In this document: piece after piece, positions 6,648-30,493 of the stretch
Layout of the letters: every line of letters begins with the position of its first letter
How positions within the stretch are numbered: the stretch's first letter is position 1
From: a phage
Length of the DNA: 43,091 nucleotides
Assembly: GCA_021146305.1 (NCBI GenBank)
Contig: GCA_021146305.1_4336.1
Strand: one strand, 5' to 3'
Translations under genes and position numbers: made by a program
Notes under the pieces: generated by a model
What the model was told of the DNA's origin: nothing
Seen by the model: the letters and a program-made list of their open reading frames with translations, nothing else
Database searches by the model: none

Positions 6648-6676
6648 TTGCACACCCCAATATAATAGTGTACTAT
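6648..6676 (+). promoter_or_regulatory. sigma70-like promoter with operator palindrome
   Basis: TTGCAC (6648-6653), 17-bp spacer, TACTAT (6671-6676); palindrome TAATAG-tgta-CTATTC (6663-6678) overlaps the -10; about 40 bp upstream of ATG 6718. Confidence 0.55.
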
Positions 6677-15880: not shown

Positions 15881-15909
15881 TTGCGCACCCCAATATAATA
15901 GGGTACTAT
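15881..15909 (+). promoter_or_regulatory. sigma70-like promoter with operator palindrome
   Basis: TTGCGC (15881-15886), 17-bp spacer, TACTAT (15904-15909); palindrome TAATAG-ggta-CTATTC (15896-15911); near-identical to the promoter at 6648-6676. Confidence 0.55.
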
Positions 15910-20286: not shown

Positions 20287-21558
20287 TTAAAGTGCGAAAG
20301 TCACCGGGACGTTAATAACTGGTTTGCGAATCGGCATTTCATACGCGATAGGGTATGTGGTTCCATCATTCGGGTGGTCCACACCGCCTGATTTATCCGG
20401 TTCGCCGTTCTTGTCGTAAGCCTGTTGCTCCAGGCATCGTGCGGTAACAGGGCAAGCCTGTTCATTAATCATGACCATACCAGATTCAAGCGCCTTATTC
20501 ATCGCCGCTACGCGGTCTTTAACCGGTGGGTTTGTCGATTTAGCGCGCACTTCGAAGCCGGCCTGCTGTAACTGGGCAATATCAGATGTGCTGGCGTTGT
20601 TACTTTTACGGTTTTTACCGCTTGCGTCGGGGTACATAACGATATAGTGGCCCTTACTTTTCCAGCGCTCTGTTACGGCTCTCACCACATCGGGCGTATC
20701 GAACATATCCACCAACTCGGCGACTGCATGCCAGACTTTGCCACGTTGCACGTAAACTGTACTAGCCATGTGGCCTACGTTAAAGTCCTGCCCGATATAC
20801 AGAGTCTCGCCTGGTTTTATTGTTTCGCGGCTGCTGTTTTTCCTGCGGTCATAGGCGTAATAGACAGTCCCCGCCGTCAGGTTGACGAACTCGCCGTTGA
20901 TGTAGGCGTCAATCAACTGACCTGGGTATGTGTCGCGTAACGACTGCACATAATCTTCTGGCAGGAACGGGTTAGACAGGGTGGACGCCTGAATCATCTC
21001 GTAGCCTGGATTCTTTTTGACTACCCAGCGGTCATGTACGAAACGGAATCCTTCCGGGGTAGTGAACACGGAAACGGTATTAGCAGGTTTCGGTGTAATA
21101 GGTTTATATGTCCGCGGCAACTGGCGGTTACGGGCGATGACTTTGTTCCACGCGTGCTCGGCGTGCTCCATGTTAAGGGTGTCCAACTCGTCGATTTTCG
21201 CACGAAACGATTCGTAGCCAACGATTCGTGCTGGATTATCAAGTGTACGCAGAACAAAATCCCCAAATTGTCCGGAAGACGTATAGATTATGTTGTCAGA
21301 CTTGTTGTATTTGTACCGGATACCCCAGTCGGTGAGCTTTTCTTCCATACGCGGTGCAAGGATGAGGCGCACCAGGTCATAAGTCGGCTCATACATGGCG
21401 ATGATAGAATCGCTACCACCTTCCATGCTGTCGAGTAGTGCAGAGTTGCACATAACTTCGGATTTACCCGTACCGAAGCCAGCTACGAATGCCGGAAACT
21501 TGCAATGCATACCGAGAAACGCGCCTTGCGGCTCCGTTGCCGTGATATTAACGTTCAC
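20287..21558 (-). CDS. terminase large subunit
   Basis: 423 aa; N-terminal Walker A-like GFGTGKS, size and position typical; 11-nt overlap with the upstream small subunit gene. Confidence 0.85.
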   Translation of the reverse strand: MNVNITATEPQGAFLGMHCKFPAFVAGFGTGKSEVMCNSALLDSMEGGSDSIIAMYEPTYDLVRLILAPRMEEKLTDWGIRYKYNKSDNIIYTSSGQFGDFVLRTLDNPARIVGYESFRAKIDELDTLNMEHAEHAWNKVIARNRQLPRTYKPITPKPANTVSVFTTPEGFRFVHDRWVVKKNPGYEMIQASTLSNPFLPEDYVQSLRDTYPGQLIDAYINGEFVNLTAGTVYYAYDRRKNSSRETIKPGETLYIGQDFNVGHMASTVYVQRGKVWHAVAELVDMFDTPDVVRAVTERWKSKGHYIVMYPDASGKNRKSNNASTSDIAQLQQAGFEVRAKSTNPPVKDRVAAMNKALESGMVMINEQACPVTARCLEQQAYDKNGEPDKSGGVDHPNDGTTYPIAYEMPIRKPVINVPVTFAL

Positions 21559-22057
21559 CGGACACCACCTTAATTGTTACTTCGCTGATTGGCTCGTCGC
21601 GTACTTCTTCGGCGACAACTGTTTTATTCAGGCCCAGTTTCGCGGCAGCAAACGTAGCAGAGATGCCCGCGGCCCCCGTTTCAGTGAAGTATGCCTCTTC
21701 CAGCGCCTGTGCTGTCTCCCAGGCTTCTGCAAATGCGGGAATCTCACGCAGCCAAAGCTTAATAATCGGGATAGTGACTCCGATGTGTAAGGCGAAGCGG
21801 GCCAGTGACGGTGGTTTATCCTGAATCAGCGGGCGTTCGTCGCCCTTGGACGTAGGCACAAGTTCCCACGACGTGCGGTCGAAGAACTCGATTAACGCGT
21901 CACAGTAGTCCGGGTCCCACAATGCCGCAGAATTACGGGATGATTGATAAAGGCTCTGTTTACCACGCGGTCGTTTACGGCGACGGTTTGCGCTAACAGC
22001 TTCTTCATGTGCAGCTTGTACCACCTCTGGCGATGGCTGCTTAAGTTTCAGCTTCAT
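21548..22057 (-). CDS. terminase small subunit
   Basis: 169 aa from ATG 22055-22057 (AAGGGGA RBS); the track ORF begins at an upstream GTG; basic N-terminal region. Confidence 0.6.
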   Translation of the reverse strand: MKLKLKQPSPEVVQAAHEEAVSANRRRKRPRGKQSLYQSSRNSAALWDPDYCDALIEFFDRTSWELVPTSKGDERPLIQDKPPSLARFALHIGVTIPIIKLWLREIPAFAEAWETAQALEEAYFTETGAAGISATFAAAKLGLNKTVVAEEVRDEPISEVTIKVVSGER

Positions 22058-22152
22058 AGAATCCCCTTGCATATGCGTCTGACCATCAGAGCGCACCAGA
22101 CGCGCCCTACGCGTCTAAAGGGATTATATAAGGGGATTGGGCGGGATGTACA

Positions 22153-25447: not shown

Positions 25448-25635
25448 CACTCCACCCCCTCCACATGTGTAACCGACCCACAGTTCGCGCACTCGACGTA
25501 ATCAGGGTACTGGTCTTTGTATTTCTGTAACTCAGCTTCAAGTTTCGCGTAATCTTCGTAAAGCACTAACACGCCCTCAACATCAGGAGTAAACCCGAAT
25601 ATCTGGTCGTAGGTATATCTCTGCACCATAATCAC
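25447..25635 (-). CDS. hypothetical protein
   Basis: 62 aa; AGGAG RBS; C-terminal CANCGSVTH. Confidence 0.45.
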   Translation of the reverse strand: MIMVQRYTYDQIFGFTPDVEGVLVLYEDYAKLEAELQKYKDQYPDYVECANCGSVTHVEGVE

Positions 25636-25834
25636 TTCTCCTGTTTACCAAGTCGCTTAGGTGAGCAGATAGCGCGTACCTCTGAATCGTTTGGCTTGTC
25701 ACCCTGAAACAGAAAGTGCGCGTTCTCTGCAGCGCGTGCCGCTGACTGGCACGCCTCCATCGAGTAAAACGTTTCTGATGCCGCGAGTTGCATCTGGCCT
25801 GCGGACAATACTCATATAAAGAGGATGCTGGTCA

Positions 25835-26275
25835 TCAGAGGTATCTCCCGCACGTTTCACATATTTTTGTACCAAACGGCGCGGAGCCATCTGTTACTAC
25901 ATAATAGTAACTGTGGCGGCATTCCTGCGCGTCTTCTTTCCGGCAACCGGATTTCTCAGGCGCATCCTTACATCCGAGTTCCTCAAGTGCTTTGCTAAGG
26001 TATTGGCGGCGCAGGGTGTCAGTCATTGCACTATTTGCCCGCCGGATGTACCCAATCGCGCCTTTAGGGTCCAGGTCAACGATTGAACGAAGACACATAA
26101 CCTCGTTTTCAGCGCAATCCAGCGCACAGGTTAGTTCCTTAATCTGCGCCGACGCGTCACGTAACTGATTCTTTAGTGACTGCACTTCATGCACCAGGTC
26201 TTCGCACTGGTTGCTGTTTACCTGCTGCCGTAGTTGGTCAATCAGGTACTCGAATACTTCGTTTTTGTTACTCAT
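25835..26275 (-). CDS. coiled-coil protein with shared domain and C-terminal Cys4 motif
   Basis: 146 aa; GAGGAG RBS; N-terminal coiled coil, central IGYIRRANSAMTDTLRRQYLSKALEEL shared with 23660-23857, C-terminal C-x7-C ... C-x2-C zinc-ribbon-like motif. Confidence 0.55.
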   Translation of the reverse strand: MSNKNEVFEYLIDQLRQQVNSNQCEDLVHEVQSLKNQLRDASAQIKELTCALDCAENEVMCLRSIVDLDPKGAIGYIRRANSAMTDTLRRQYLSKALEELGCKDAPEKSGCRKEDAQECRHSYYYVVTDGSAPFGTKICETCGRYL

Positions 26276-26306
26276 CTTCTGTCTCTCCTCTAGTTTGTGT
26301 AAATGA

Positions 26307-26335
26307 ATAGTAGCCTATTCTATCTTAGTGTGCAA
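26307..26335 (-). promoter_or_regulatory. sigma70-like promoter with operator palindrome (leftward)
   Basis: Minus-strand TTGCAC (plus 26330-26335), 17-bp spacer, TACTAT (26307-26312); perfect palindrome GAATAG-tagc-CTATTC at 26305-26320. Confidence 0.55.
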
Positions 26336-26356
26336 GTAAATTTTATTGGTGTTTGT

Positions 26357-26446
26357 ATTGTCGCATTTCCTGCAATAGTCGCTTGGATTGTTGCATCTCC
26401 TGCAATAGTCGCTTGGATTGTTGCGTTTGGTGAAAGTGTCGCTTTT
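26357..26446. repeat. 30-bp tandem direct repeats (2 near-identical copies + 1 degenerate)
   Basis: attgtcgcatttcctgcaatagtcgcttgg (26357-26386), attgttgcatctcctgcaatagtcgcttgg (26387-26416), degenerate third copy 26417-26446. Confidence 0.8.
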
Positions 26447-26468
26447 TGACGACACTAAGTTAAAGTTG

Positions 26469-26490
26469 TACGCTGCTGTGTAGCAGCGTA
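26469..26490. other. perfect hairpin (9-bp stem, 4-nt loop)
   Basis: TACGCTGCT-gtgt-AGCAGCGTA; a second hairpin AGTGTCG-(8 nt)-CGACACT lies at 26435-26456; both downstream of small ORF 26513-26662 and may act as minus-strand terminator or protein-binding site. Confidence 0.5.
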
Positions 26491-26512
26491 AGTCACTAAG
26501 CCAAATATTAAC

Positions 26513-26662
26513 CTATTGACCTGTTACACCAGCTCCGGCTTGCACACCAGCTTTCCACGCCCGCCACGCGAGACGTGTCTTAACGTTCAGGTACTCTTTC
26601 TTCGAACCCTTGTTAACCGGCAGGCCCTCGACGACGGCCCACCGTTCGAATGCTTCTCTCAT
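26513..26662 (-). CDS. small hypothetical protein
   Basis: 49 aa read manually (MREAFERWAVVEGLPVNKGSKKEYLNVKTRLAWRAWKAGVQAGAGVTGQ); ATGA overlap with the upstream ORF. Confidence 0.35.
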   Translation of the reverse strand: MREAFERWAVVEGLPVNKGSKKEYLNVKTRLAWRAWKAGVQAGAGVTGQ

Positions 26663-26805
26663 ACCAGAACCTCGCATTCATCCCGATACACGAACAATAA
26701 TGACCCTTTGTACTCAATCATAAAACCATAATGGTTGCTGCTGAACGCCAGAAAAACATCACCTACCGAGATACCGAAATCTATAAGCCTGCGTCGAATT
26801 TTCAT
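26659..26805 (-). CDS. small hypothetical protein
   Basis: 48 aa read manually (MKIRRRLIDFGISVGDVFLAFSSNHYGFMIEYKGSLLFVYRDECEVLV); GGAGG RBS; TAATG coupling. Confidence 0.35.
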   Translation of the reverse strand: MKIRRRLIDFGISVGDVFLAFSSNHYGFMIEYKGSLLFVYRDECEVLV

Positions 26806-26993
26806 TAACGGCAACCTCCCTCAGAGTCGTCGGCACGAGCATCATGATTAGATGCCGTTCTCTCCCTCACTTCGACCATCCTTCCTACCTCTGCGGCGTA
26901 ATACACATACAGCTTTATTGCGTAATCTTTATTACTTGTCGTCTCTGAGATAACCCCGTCGACGTATACGTCATAAATTAATTCTCCCATCAC
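26805..26993 (-). CDS. hypothetical protein
   Basis: 62 aa, acidic C-terminus; ATGA overlap with the upstream gene. Confidence 0.45.
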   Translation of the reverse strand: MMGELIYDVYVDGVISETTSNKDYAIKLYVYYAAEVGRMVEVRERTASNHDARADDSEGGCR

Positions 26994-27175
26994 TTCGCCC
27001 CTTTGAATTTAAAATTGTTGCCGATGAGTTCTAAATCACATTTACGGAGTAACCCTTTGCCGTAACCTGCGACGCTATTAACCTCCACAAAACCGAACCA
27101 CATTAGCTTCGATTCTATTATCGTAAATAAATTGCCTGTAAATTTATTCCGCACCAATTGACCCTTCTTAAACAT
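26990..27175 (-). CDS. hypothetical protein, first gene of the leftward early operon
   Basis: 61 aa from ATG 27173-27175 with AAGGAG RBS; about 30 bp downstream of the promoter at 27211-27239. Confidence 0.5.
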   Translation of the reverse strand: MFKKGQLVRNKFTGNLFTIIESKLMWFGFVEVNSVAGYGKGLLRKCDLELIGNNFKFKGAK

Positions 27176-27210
27176 AACCCTCACTCCTTATGTCTCGTTT
27201 CGATAAGTGA

Positions 27211-27239
27211 ATAGTAGCCTATTATGTTGGGGTGTGCAA
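27211..27239 (-). promoter_or_regulatory. sigma70-like promoter with operator palindrome (leftward early)
   Basis: Minus-strand TTGCAC (plus 27234-27239), 17-bp spacer, TACTAT (27211-27216); palindrome GAATAG-tagc-CTATTA at 27209-27224. Confidence 0.55.
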
Positions 27240-27281
27240 GAGATTAGTTACGTTGCCGTTGTGATTCTTTTGTTTCTTTAA

Positions 27282-27337
27282 AGAGTACGCAACGCAGTGG
27301 GTGGGCGTTAGCCCACCCCAGCGGAGTGAAGTACTCT
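27282..27337. other. nested stem-loop in the early-left leader
   Basis: Outer inverted repeat AGAGTAC (27282-27288) / GTACTCT (27331-27337) enclosing inner hairpin GGGTGGGC-gtta-GCCCACCC (27299-27318). Confidence 0.45.
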
Positions 27338-27404
27338 CTACCTTGCTTACGGCAACTATAGAAACTTTTAATTATCAGTGACTTGAGTATTTAGGCGGGA
27401 TTAA

Positions 27405-27548
27405 CAATAGACTTTGGCCCTTCCGAAAGCGCCAGCGGAACTACACTCAAGTGCCTAATGGCACGCGTTGCGTTCCCTGCCGCTCCGCGGTCGCTTGCGA
27501 TATCTCACAAGCTCAGTGAAGCTTAGCATATTTTTAAGTAAAAGTCAA
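27405..27548 (-). promoter_or_regulatory. conserved promoter + structured leader module, copy 2
   Basis: Leftward promoter TTGACT (plus 27543-27548), 17-bp spacer, TAAGCT (27520-27525); leader 27405-27512 aligns with copy 1; stem gtgcc-taat-ggcac (27451-27464) replaces ggac-ttac-gtcc of copy 1. Confidence 0.55.
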
Positions 27549-27595
27549 TACCAGAAGCATCTTTTGTATCTTAGTAACTTTGTGTGGTGTTTTGG

Positions 27596-27624
27596 TTGCT
27601 TTTACATTCACGCTATCCTATACT
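27596..27624 (+). promoter_or_regulatory. sigma70-like promoter (rightward early)
   Basis: TTGCTT (27596-27601), 17-bp spacer, TATACT (27619-27624); about 30 bp upstream of ATG 27656. Confidence 0.5.
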
Positions 27625-27655
27625 CGTTTTCACCAAACAAACAGGAGATATAAAA

Positions 27656-27838
27656 ATGCAGCATTACATGACACAGAATGAAGTGGCTGAACGTATCGGG
27701 GTGACACGTCAAACCATTAATAACTGGTTGCGCAGCGGTAAATTCCCTGATTGCTGTATTAAGGTTATGGGTCGCCGTTTACCAGGAACATTTGACCGTA
27801 ATAAAGTTGAAGCATGGATTAAGGAGAACGTGAAATGA
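27656..27838 (+). CDS. HTH DNA-binding protein (AlpA / excisionase-like)
   Basis: 61 aa from ATG 27656 with AGGAGA RBS; helix-turn-helix VAERIGVTRQTINNWLRSG. Confidence 0.55.
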   Translation: MQHYMTQNEVAERIGVTRQTINNWLRSGKFPDCCIKVMGRRLPGTFDRNKVEAWIKENVK

Positions 27839-28047
27839 TTGGGCGTATGGGTTGTTACTTTGAAAACTGTAAAGTTAAATACTGGTTTAAGTTTGCGTCG
27901 GAAATTACTGACAGCGGATTCTATGCGGAAATATGTAAGCCTAATCATTTGTCGGAACCGACACGCATTATTAAGATGTCAGCAGACGTGTTAAGTAAAT
28001 GCCGCTTCTATGATTCCGAGCACGCGTGGTTTTCTGGTTGTAAATAA
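27835..28047 (+). CDS. hypothetical Cys-rich protein
   Basis: 70 aa; ATGA coupling to the HTH gene. Confidence 0.45.
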   Translation: MIGRMGCYFENCKVKYWFKFASEITDSGFYAEICKPNHLSEPTRIIKMSADVLSKCRFYDSEHAWFSGCK

Positions 28048-28115
28048 AAGAAACCCCAACGCCAGAACGTCGGGGCTAAAGTACAAATCATCAAAGTAAG
28101 CATAAGGATTATACA

Positions 28116-28244
28116 ATGACAAAGTTAATAGTTCCACAGCTACGCCGCCAGAAACACGGCGCTGATTTCTTCGCACCGGTAAAGATGAACCGCGCAATGC
28201 GCCGTATGCAGGAAGCCTTAGAACGTGCGGAGAAAAAGAAATGA
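28116..28244 (+). CDS. small basic protein
   Basis: 42 aa (MTKLIVPQLRRQKHGADFFAPVKMNRAMRRMQEALERAEKKK); AAGGA RBS; stop overlaps the ATG of the next gene. Confidence 0.35.
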   Translation: MTKLIVPQLRRQKHGADFFAPVKMNRAMRRMQEALERAEKKK

Positions 28245-30493
28245 ATATTGTTTTTGCAACGCTGCGTAACACATTCGATAAAAACCCTGTAGCGCGTGAA
28301 ATGCCGCTGGAGCAGTTCGTAGAGTATGTCTGCGATACATCGAAGCGTTTATCCGTGGATCCGTCGTGGTCTAAGGAAGAGTACGACGCTGCCAAGATTA
28401 AGCAGAAAGCTATTGCGCCTGTTGGTGGTCGCCGTAAGAACGCTATTCTTGAAGACAGTGTGGTTAAGTTCGACTTTGACCATCTCAACCGTACTCAGTA
28501 CCGCGACCTGACCCGCAAATTCAAGAACGCTCCGTTCTTCAATATTCTGCACACAACGGCGTCGCATCAGCACGCGTGTAAAAACGGTGATTACGCCTTT
28601 CGCGTTCTGGTTCCGGCTCGCACTCCGTTTAACTCTAACGACGCGTGGATGGTGCAACGTGCTATTTGTGCAGAGTTAGAAATAGATGAAGCCTTGCGTG
28701 ACCACTGCACGGAAGACGGCAACCGCCTTATCTATCTGCCACATAGAGAGTCAAAGATAACGGTTACAGAAGGGCGTGTTATCCGTGCCGAGCGGTACAT
28801 CAAGAAAGCCGAAGAGATGGGGTTGAGTAAACGTGAAGTTAAGACACTTGCCGCCGATGAGTATGGGCTTAACGCTGATATAGCGCATTTCTGCGAAGCC
28901 GAGCTTGGCCTTGACGCTTTATCTTCCGGGCGCGGGTACGAAGTCCCATGCCCTAACGAACATCTGCATACAGGCAAAGGCTCCACAAGCATCATGCTTG
29001 ATGGTAAAGAAGTGCGCTTTGTGTGCCAGCATACAAACAACGGCGCTTGCACCGAGCTTAACCGCCGACAGCATTTGGCCCTGCGTATGTGCGGCCTGCC
29101 AGACGAGCTTAACGTAGACAAGCAACCTATCAGTATTAACAGCATTCGTGCGGCTCTGCCTGATTTACCGGATGAAGAGATTGAAGAACTGCACCGCACA
29201 GAGAACGAGGAGCCTGTAACTTGCACGCTGGAAGACCTTGAAGAAGAGGACGAGTTACCAGAACCGGTAAAGGCTGATTTCGTCGTAGAAGGGTACATGC
29301 CGTCGGATTGTATCTGGGATATTGTCGGGGAATCCGGCACGTACAAATCATTCTATACGCTGGGGATGATGTACCTGAGCGCCACCGGGTACCGGTTTGC
29401 GGGGGCTGACACCCAACGTTGCCACCATTTCTATATTGACGGCGAGGGTGGTGCAGCTACACGAACACGTATTGATGCACTCGCGGCTAAATATGGCGAG
29501 GAAGGTAAAGATTATGTACATGTCATCGATATGGGCGAAATACTCGCTACGCATGGTGATAAAAAAATTCCAGCTCTAATCCGCAGGATGCGCGAAACCG
29601 CAGGGGATGAACCTATTGGCATGGTTGCCTTCGACACCCTTAACCAGACGCTGGCCCTGACGATTGATAAGTTCGACGAGAACAGTTCATCAACGGCAAT
29701 CGGTATGGGTAAAGTTATCGCCATCCTGAAAGAAGTGCGCGATGCAACTAAAGCCGCTGTCGGTGTCGTTCACCATACTCCGAAGGGCGGAAAGAAAGCC
29801 CGCGGCAGTGGAGCATTGTATGCGGGTGTCGACGTGGAACTGACAATCGAACGCGCTACCGACCGTCAGATAAACGTATACCACTCTAAATTTAAGCACG
29901 GTCCGCAACAGAAGACGGTTGGCATGGTACTGGAGTCTGTACAGTTCCGTGAAGCACCGCCGCCGAAAGAGTACCGCGCGGTTGAGTTCCTCGGTAGCAC
30001 AGAGGAATACGGCACAATAGTAAACCTTGACCTGCCTGAGCCGCACAAGGCGCTTGTATTGATGCCGTGGGGTTTCGAGCCGTTCAAAACTGACGAGGAG
30101 AAAGAGCGGGAAGAAGGGTTGACGAAAGAAGGTAAAGAAAATGTACGTAAAACCGTAGAGAACGCCGTCAACAGTTCGGAGGCCACGATACTCGCGGCGT
30201 TTGAACTGGCGGAAGGAACCTACAACGGCAACGAAGGCATCACGGTATCCGCAGCGAATAAGCTCGCGCAGTCTGGCCCCAACGCAAAGGCGTTTAACTC
30301 CAAAGAAGCCATAGAACGCGGGAAGATTAAGAAAATGGTTGAGGCTGGGTATCTTGTTCCGGGTACTGACGAAAACAATCAGATAATCCCAGGCCGTTAC
30401 AGACTGAACACCATGATAACAGATAACAAGATTCCGAAGACAATATACGAACCGAATGAAATGCTGACAGTGACCGAGGAGGATTTGGAATGA
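28241..30493 (+). CDS. replication protein: primase-like N-terminal region + RecA/DnaB-type P-loop ATPase
   Basis: 750 aa; Cys/His cluster (CPNEHLH...C..H...C) suggesting a zinc-binding primase-like domain; central Walker A GESGTYKS; acidic C-terminal region. Confidence 0.55.
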   Translation: MNIVFATLRNTFDKNPVAREMPLEQFVEYVCDTSKRLSVDPSWSKEEYDAAKIKQKAIAPVGGRRKNAILEDSVVKFDFDHLNRTQYRDLTRKFKNAPFFNILHTTASHQHACKNGDYAFRVLVPARTPFNSNDAWMVQRAICAELEIDEALRDHCTEDGNRLIYLPHRESKITVTEGRVIRAERYIKKAEEMGLSKREVKTLAADEYGLNADIAHFCEAELGLDALSSGRGYEVPCPNEHLHTGKGSTSIMLDGKEVRFVCQHTNNGACTELNRRQHLALRMCGLPDELNVDKQPISINSIRAALPDLPDEEIEELHRTENEEPVTCTLEDLEEEDELPEPVKADFVVEGYMPSDCIWDIVGESGTYKSFYTLGMMYLSATGYRFAGADTQRCHHFYIDGEGGAATRTRIDALAAKYGEEGKDYVHVIDMGEILATHGDKKIPALIRRMRETAGDEPIGMVAFDTLNQTLALTIDKFDENSSSTAIGMGKVIAILKEVRDATKAAVGVVHHTPKGGKKARGSGALYAGVDVELTIERATDRQINVYHSKFKHGPQQKTVGMVLESVQFREAPPPKEYRAVEFLGSTEEYGTIVNLDLPEPHKALVLMPWGFEPFKTDEEKEREEGLTKEGKENVRKTVENAVNSSEATILAAFELAEGTYNGNEGITVSAANKLAQSGPNAKAFNSKEAIERGKIKKMVEAGYLVPGTDENNQIIPGRYRLNTMITDNKIPKTIYEPNEMLTVTEEDLE

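Follow-up and report, generated by a model that had tools for sequence, protein, structure and literature searches.

What is the function of a short run of tandem repeats, accompanied by two hairpins, in the non-coding DNA between two genes of a lytic phage? The locus that raises this question occupies positions 26357-26490 of the window, by which we mean the whole 43,091-nucleotide stretch of DNA analysed here (GenBank assembly GCA_021146305.1). The phage is a Kagunavirus-like (Guernseyvirinae) lytic siphophage of the E. coli/Salmonella type. When searched by BLAST against GenBank phages, both the region 25800-27700 and the element itself match records of Escherichia Kagunavirus and Salmonella Jerseyvirus, several hundred in all, at identities of up to ~95% and in pieces. 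The window starts and stops inside coding sequence, which indicates a permuted or arbitrarily opened genome of ~43 kb. A first-pass annotation of this DNA had regarded the repeats as typical either of a replication origin or of a multi-site binding platform for a regulator.

Repeat units and their gene setting

The element sits in intergenic DNA between two leftward genes. Reading along the minus strand, a 54-aa gene (26677-26513) is followed by a hairpin with a 9-bp stem, a second hairpin, a degenerate repeat unit and two full units; past the full units come an A/T-rich stretch, a promoter-like box and a 146-aa gene (26275-25835). Genes point leftward from ~27.2 kb and rightward from 27656. 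The first rightward gene (27656-27838) encodes an HTH protein, and a primase/helicase gene follows at 28241. The HTH_17 protein of 60 aa encoded by 27656-27838 (plus strand) matches excisionase/Cox-type regulators as well as, in several small-terminase PHROG families, the DNA-binding domain at the N-terminus. The terminase genes lie farther to the left, both on the minus strand: that of the small subunit, TerS, at 21548-22096 (phrog_3064 'terminase', E=2.7e-75) and that of the large subunit, TerL, at 20287-21558 (Pfam Terminase_6N and Terminase_6C, and PHROG terminase large subunit families). A PDB sequence search with TerS returned no match; for its similarity to P22 gp3 we cite solely the report in the supplement of the paper on phage fEg-Eco19 (PMC9038960).

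Three head-to-tail units of 30 bp had been described at 26357-26446, and both Tandem Repeats Finder and a second repeat search confirm them. In the output of Tandem Repeats Finder the period is 30 nt at 26353-26444, with 3.1 copies (2.4 copies at 92% identity), and the in-register copies at 26353-26382, 26383-26412 and 26413-26442 are 100%, 90% and 73% identical to the reference copy. In the register of the first-pass annotation (26357, 26387, 26417), the two full units do differ at 2 positions, and the third is degenerate, matching the first two at 22-23 of 30 positions. Full unit 1 (ATTGTCGCATTTCCTGCAATAGTCGCTTGG) thus spans 26357-26386, full unit 2 spans 26387-26416 and the degenerate unit 3 (ATTGTTGCGTTTGG^TGA^AAGTG, in which the carets mark the predicted cuts discussed below) spans 26417-26438, none of the three being assigned to a strand.

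Tandem matches at 27 of 30 positions are expected ~4e-9 times by chance in 43 kb, and the 23-nt core of the unit has two matches in the window at ≤3 mismatches versus none in 100 shuffles. The unit is unique to the site: in the whole 43 kb it is matched (≤3 mismatches) at 26357 and 26387 only. Each unit is an imperfect palindrome, ATTGTTGCA-tctcc-TGCAATAGT, with dyad symmetry at 7 of 9 arm positions, a property that had escaped the earlier annotation. The annotation was right to exclude a CRISPR array, as the units abut without spacers. A 48-aa plus-strand ORF across the repeats (26303-26449) encodes an internally repeated peptide (AFPAIVAWIV/ASPAIVAWIV) and is almost certainly no gene; the relatives differ to the left, and we reject the ORF as an artefact of translating the repeats.

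Conservation and mosaic flanks among relatives

Relatives of the element were collected by two pattern scans of IMG/VR, one with a hairpin pattern and one with a unit pattern, yielding 48 loci anchored on the degenerate unit. Variation in repeat number, which had been set as a check on the initial proposals, was indeed found: 45 of 47 loci carry exactly one full and one degenerate unit with no third box, and the additional full copy, full unit 1, is confined to the window. The GenBank phage records that best cover a 131-nt query span ~30 nt less than the query, and the extra unit is absent from all of these best matches. The linker reads CTTGG in both full units of the window versus CTTCG in the relatives. 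The extra unit is a lineage-specific local tandem duplication, and the two full units of the window have since diverged at 2-3 positions; full unit 2 is the copy conserved in the family. In a single relative, the metagenomic L018 (IMGVR_UViG_3300045988_006100), the full unit has a degraded left arm, ~100 nt left of the hairpin. Its right arm, linker and degenerate unit are all intact, a hint as to which half the unit can do without.

The repeat counts bear directly on the idea of an iteron-type origin, in which a phage initiator would bind the tandem units and open the adjacent DNA with assistance from the hairpins. Iteron origins, such as lambda ori with its O-protein sites and P1 oriR, have at least four conserved copies, AT-rich DNA alongside and a gene for the cognate initiator. 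The element resembles them in its tandem direct repeats of ~20-30 bp in non-coding, intergenic DNA, the cumulative GC skew reaches its minimum in the 26-27 kb bin, and the primase/helicase gene starts only 1.8 kb away, at 28241. However, none of the three hallmarks is found here. The relatives keep one full and one degenerate unit in place of an array. There is no mismatch-free DnaA box in 26000-27800, and the AT content is 53-55% over the repeats and 53-57% across and to the right of them, with no unwinding element. The neighbouring genes encode small proteins of unknown function and no Rep-like initiator. The skew turns where leftward genes give way to rightward ones, at ~27.2-27.65 kb, and this change in the direction of transcription explains the minimum without an origin. 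Finally, virion DNA ends map to the repeats instead, as detailed below. An origin at the repeats is highly improbable, and we do not retain that proposal.

The leftward and rightward operons are separated by a stretch of ~410 bp of non-coding DNA (27241-27655), which adjoins the cumulative GC-skew minimum. The bin that holds this stretch (27001-28000) has the lowest GC content in the window, 41.5%. The stretch contains several inverted repeats, e.g. GGGTGGGCGTTAGCCCACCC at ~27300-27320, and the Jerseyvirus T102 likewise has a long non-coding stretch with hairpins at the equivalent location. No Rfam or tRNA match falls within 27241-27655. As a candidate origin or regulatory RNA, this stretch is more plausible than the repeats.

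Among 45 distinct sequences from two genera, all columns from the start of the full unit through GTGAAA are ~90-100% conserved, and the variable positions cluster in the centre of the degenerate unit. Mean pairwise identity over the 49-nt core (full plus degenerate unit) is 91% across the two genera. The surroundings are mosaic: the ungapped identity of the flanks is 36% over 100 nt to the left and 45% over 100 nt beyond the hairpin. In ~26 of the 45 distinct relatives the unit runs directly into a start codon, so that a variable gene takes both its Shine-Dalgarno sequence and its ATG from the unit; the minus-strand reading is gcaGGAGatgcaacaATG, and at least six unrelated coding sequences follow it. 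Some Jerseyviruses (L003, which is T102, at 1380-1500, and L009) have truncated remnants of the unit-initiated gene, e.g. ccaggttacgaggtcatttgg. These remnants lie between the unit and the promoter-like box and are traces of deletions at the joint.

Is the unit, then, a translation-initiation cassette at a recombination joint, kept for the GGAG Shine-Dalgarno sequence and ATG that it lends to whichever gene has recombined in, with a duplicated relic in the window? The many unrelated genes that start from it agree with this, as does the mosaic boundary, which falls exactly at the unit edge. However, 16 relatives and the window have no ORF that begins at the unit, and its conservation there is just as high; a ribosome-binding site needs neither 30 invariant nucleotides nor a degenerate second copy; and the virion ends at the unit would be left unexplained. 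We consider this account very unlikely. The use of the unit as a translation start is better seen as a secondary, opportunistic use of a sequence fixed for another reason.

In the window, the box next to the full units, TTGCAC-N17-TACTAT, lies at 26307-26335 on the minus strand, before the 146-aa gene (26275-25835). It had been annotated as an early promoter with an operator. The box is there, but only 7 of 12 positions agree with the sigma-70 consensus, and it is not called by a promoter and terminator consensus scan of 25800-27900, which reported no sites of either kind. Since that scan is empty, it is conservation in the family that points to promoter function. The motif has four matches in the window versus 0.26 expected (6648-6676 and 15881-15909 on the plus strand, 26307-26335 and 27211-27239 on the minus strand), each facing a gene cluster, and a 48-nt paralogue of the box at 26307-26335 is found at 27193-27240 (repeat family D2). 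The four boxes are probably the phage's own promoter class, possibly with a regulator site in common. Their spacer is conserved (ACCCCAAyATAATAGg), with an internal TATAAT or CATAAT in several, and a short dyad, AATAG-N4-CTATT, overlaps their TACTAT.

A regulator platform would have a dimeric HTH protein, such as the 60-aa product of 27656-27838, bind the units and control the leftward operon. The dyad symmetry of each unit, the location of the window's units ~20-110 bp upstream of the TTGCAC hexamer and the presence of an HTH_17 gene nearby are all consistent with such a role, which could also coexist with a function in DNA packaging. Yet the box adjoins the unit in just 16 of the 45 distinct relatives, whereas in most the unit abuts a start codon; no unit accompanies the other three boxes (6648, 15881, 27239), and the window has none outside this site; and the partners conserved with the unit are the site of virion DNA cutting and the hairpin, not the promoter-like box. 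The notion of an intergenic multi-site protein-binding platform survives from the first-pass annotation, while control of the adjacent promoter as its main role is not supported and appears unlikely.

The hairpins themselves are real. The one at 26469-26490 is TACGCTGCT-GTGT-AGCAGCGTA, with a 9-bp stem; the one at 26435-26456 pairs the arms AGTGTCG and CGACACT over 7 bp, around an 8-nt loop. The minimum-free-energy and centroid folds contain both hairpins, with z = -3.8 (RNA) and -3.4 (DNA). Searches with Rfam (in E-value mode over 25500-28300 and at the gathering threshold over the whole window) and with ARAGORN found no RNA family and no tRNA, so no known RNA family explains them. The 9-bp stem is GC-rich, lies 23 nt past the stop codon at 26513 and is invariant in 36 loci that had been chosen by the unit pattern and not by the hairpin. 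On the minus strand it is a candidate intrinsic terminator of the leftward operon that ends at 26513. The record of phage Schulenburg annotates a 'terminator' at the conserved hairpin, on the gene strand, and in most relatives a T-rich tail, TCATTTTTCTCATTTTTG, stands behind the hairpin on the minus strand. In the window the tail behind the 9-bp hairpin is ACAACTTTAAC, which is not T-rich, and the scan of 25800-27900 called no terminator. Since that scan is empty, conservation in the family and the relative's annotation are what argue for a terminator role; the conserved hairpin is probably, in the main, the terminator of the upstream leftward operon, and it may also belong to the packaging-start (pac) region.

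Between the degenerate unit and the conserved hairpin (26434-26468) the relatives carry one of two cassettes: an A/T-rich stretch in 37 loci, which is the T-rich tail that follows the hairpin on the minus strand, or a cassette with the second hairpin ('cassette A') in 10 of 47 loci, including the window, where the second hairpin (26435-26456, unassigned to a strand) stands in for the T-rich tail. Each cassette is found both with Jerseyvirus-like and with Kagunavirus-like flanks, the second-hairpin cassette having Jerseyvirus-like flanks in two loci. The occurrence of both cassettes with both types of flank marks the pac region as a recombination joint.

The 4-nt loop of the conserved hairpin (26478-26481 in the window) varies as reverse-complement pairs: GTGT in 32 and ACAC in 2 loci, ACTC in 9 and GAGT in 2. 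In fEg-Eco19 the loop is ACCC. Such pairs suggest inversion of the palindrome ('flip-flop') by template switching or by recombination between the arms.

Virion DNA ends of related phages at the degenerate unit

The GenBank record of the Kagunavirus fEg-Eco19 is organised on termini determined with PhageTerm, with which restriction digests agree (Arch Virol 2022, PMC9038960). The supplement gives the PhageTerm call as 'Redundant; Left 1; Right distributed; permuted; Forward; Headful (pac); P1' (PMC9038960). Position 1 on the plus strand has T=0.65 and p=2.35e-25, and minor end peaks lie at 45798-45802, 4-8 nt upstream of the main one (PMC9038960). The high T value suggests short packaging series, in which most virions have this end. 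The record starts TCACCAAACGCAACAAT, and its position 1 is window base 26433, reading downwards; 'Forward' in fEg-Eco19 is leftward on the window. Its opening reads TCACCAAACGCAACAATCAAAGCGACTATTGCAGGAG (in longer form, TCACCAAACGCAACAATCAAAGCGACTATTGCAGGAGACGCAACAATACAAACACC...TTGCACAC), and it finishes ...ACGCTGCTACCCAGCAGCGTATCATTTTTCTCATTTTTGTTCTATT, that is, with the hairpin and the T-rich tail.

The published pac of fEg-Eco19 is thus the same sequence as the element, ATTGTTGCGTTTGGTGA/AA (the slash marks the cut), with a full unit and the promoter-like box ahead of it, and the window is identical to it over 17 nt to the left and 2 nt to the right of the cut. The gene context is also the same: fEg-Eco19 has 18 small genes ahead of terS and terL (terminase is gene 19), which matches the gap of 4.3 kb between the element and terS in the window. 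The two differ in that fEg-Eco19 has one full unit and the window two, and in that fEg-Eco19 has the T-rich cassette between cut and hairpin, where the window has the second hairpin.

Three further records open at the same place. That of Ivi (Greece) starts at the same base as fEg-Eco19, which corresponds to a cut at 26433/26434 of the window; those of the Jerseyvirus T102 (China) and of fEg-Eco06 (Finland) start 3 nt further in, at 26430/26431. In the orientation of the window, the T102 and fEg-Eco06 records have '...ATTGTTGCGTTTGG' at one end and 'TGAAATAGAA...hairpin' at the other. The T102 paper gives no basis for its choice of record start. Two spread samples of 60 GenBank records contained 3 and then 0 that start at the site, and the addition of fEg-Eco19 makes 4. 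Four phages of ~400-445 whose records start within a 4-nt window compare with ~0.04 expected if the starts were arbitrary, though only ~1% of records start there. An assembly break at the repeats is an unlikely cause of these starts, because the shared word in T102 is only 8 nt long, there is no k-mer overlap at the record ends, and fEg-Eco19 is backed by read-start statistics and digests. The metagenome assemblies gave no independent support for a physical end: among the IMG/VR contig ends of the 48 loci, none lies demonstrably at the cut. One locus, L043, begins at ATTGTTGCGTTTGG, and its edge there may not be a contig end.

Other reports on the subfamily agree on the type of packaging. Jerseyvirus K47 is described as P1-like headful with pac initiation; its band in PFGE is broad and its restriction map of circular type. 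In published TerL trees, Kagunavirus and Jerseyvirus fall among headful phages, and terminase trees group the Kagunaviruses K1G and K1H with them. For two relatives no clear terminus was reported (fBC-Eco01, 'no obvious termini'; Se_F1, random ends), which shows that a pac signal is not always detectable.

Taken together, these observations make it probable that the element serves as the pac site in a Guernseyvirinae phage that packages by the headful mechanism; we put the probability at roughly 0.7. The argument draws on the mapping of virion ends to the unit in relatives, the conserved island, the single site per genome, the co-distribution with TerS and the gene context. In close relatives (not in the window phage), the ends lie on one strand and the other end is distributed. 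The window encodes a TerS and a TerL of headful type and a single recognition site. The element is present in 445 phage records, compared with 451 records that have TerS at ≥60% identity, and more distant TerS relatives, in groups such as Dhillonvirus, are not among the element-bearing records; this co-distribution is a weak test, as the whole subfamily shares most genes. A cos site is ruled out by fEg-Eco19, with its redundant, permuted ends and distributed right end; the broad PFGE band and circular-type map of K47 point the same way. Several points count against a pac site. A distance of 4.3 kb from terS is less common than a pac inside or beside terS; L018 does not have the left arm of the full unit; the unit supplies the ribosome-binding site and start codon in many relatives, and perhaps part of its conservation with them; and the cut in the window phage is placed by homology only. 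Because the element is always found with the site of virion DNA ends (four phages), terminase is the most likely user of the platform, ahead of a replication initiator or a transcription factor. By the same homology, the window phage would be cut where its relatives are. The full palindromic units, among them the family-conserved unit 2, are most likely recognition and docking sites for TerS.

How might the site work? On the replicated concatemer, terminase would make the first cut of a packaging series here, with the large subunit cutting within the centre of the degenerate third unit (26430-26434 of the window). The DNA would then be threaded into the head leftward, beginning with the full units and followed by the promoter-like box, the small genes, the lysis genes, terS and terL; terS lies 4.3 kb downstream of the predicted cut in the direction of packaging, with terL beyond it. 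The ATTGTTGC boxes of the full units, 30 bp apart, would present themselves on roughly the same face of the helix for docking of the small terminase, and the window phage would have gained one additional docking unit through the local tandem duplication. The 9-bp hairpin, just outside the cut, may end the preceding leftward operon, such that no transcript need span the genome end.

A more elaborate scheme would make the unit a multi-purpose module, in which terminase docking, the translation start of swapped-in genes and binding of the Xis/Nu1-like HTH protein of 27656-27838 all converge, thereby linking the silencing of the leftward operon with packaging initiation, with the cut in the degenerate copy. 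We hold this to be distinctly unlikely. If it were true, the extra unit would alter where or how often packaging series start.

Relation to known packaging sites and significance

Among characterized packaging sites, P1 pac is one point of comparison. It is cut by PacA and PacB, and clusters of hexamer repeats flank a cleavage region about one helical turn wide; it lies within the pacA gene and has seven TGATCA/G hexamers, control by Dam methylation and an IHF site. The element described here shares with it a unique site, repeated short motifs and unidirectional headful packaging (PhageTerm type 'P1'), and in both the cleavage is spread over a few nucleotides, as the minor peaks of fEg-Eco19, 4-8 nt from the main one, indicate. 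Repeated recognition motifs around the cleavage region are common to P1 and SPP1 pac sites and, putatively, to this one. Unlike P1 pac, the element is intergenic, lies 4.3 kb from terS, is built of 30-bp palindromic units with no GATC motifs, has only a one-mismatch IHF-like match nearby and has no sequence similarity to it.

In lambda, the cos region has the nicking site cosN beside cosB with its gpNu1 R-sites, directly upstream of Nu1, and the genome has fixed 12-nt cohesive ends at both ends. The arrangement of a cut followed, in the direction of packaging, by repeated small-terminase sites (here putative) is like that of cosN-cosB, and the cut is likewise partly two-fold symmetric. It differs from cos in that, going by fEg-Eco19, the right end is distributed and the genomes are permuted and redundant, and in that the cut site is itself a degenerate copy of the presumed binding unit.

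The position of a pac cut in a Kagunavirus has already been published, for fEg-Eco19; the paper gives the position and its statistics only, with no repeat, palindrome or hairpin anatomy (PMC9038960). The literature that we searched on pac sequences of Kagunavirus and Jerseyvirus makes statements only at the level of position or packaging type, and it contains no description of the anatomy of the site, namely the unit, the degenerate copy that bears the cut, the hairpin and the mosaic joint. A pac site is an ordinary kind of element, and the finding opens no new category of biology. Its interest is in the group of phages concerned: the Guernseyvirinae are small lytic phages of Salmonella and E. 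coli, much used in therapy, biocontrol and synthetic rebooting. Knowledge of the pac site and its direction would allow genome records in the databases to be oriented correctly, the risk of generalized transduction to be predicted, and packageable, cosmid-like vectors to be designed, and it would permit engineering that spares an essential site. For the biology of the subfamily, a 30-bp imperfect palindrome, a degenerate copy for the cut and an invariant hairpin, located at a hotspot of gene exchange, amount to a compact and testable model of how a small terminase may choose its site.
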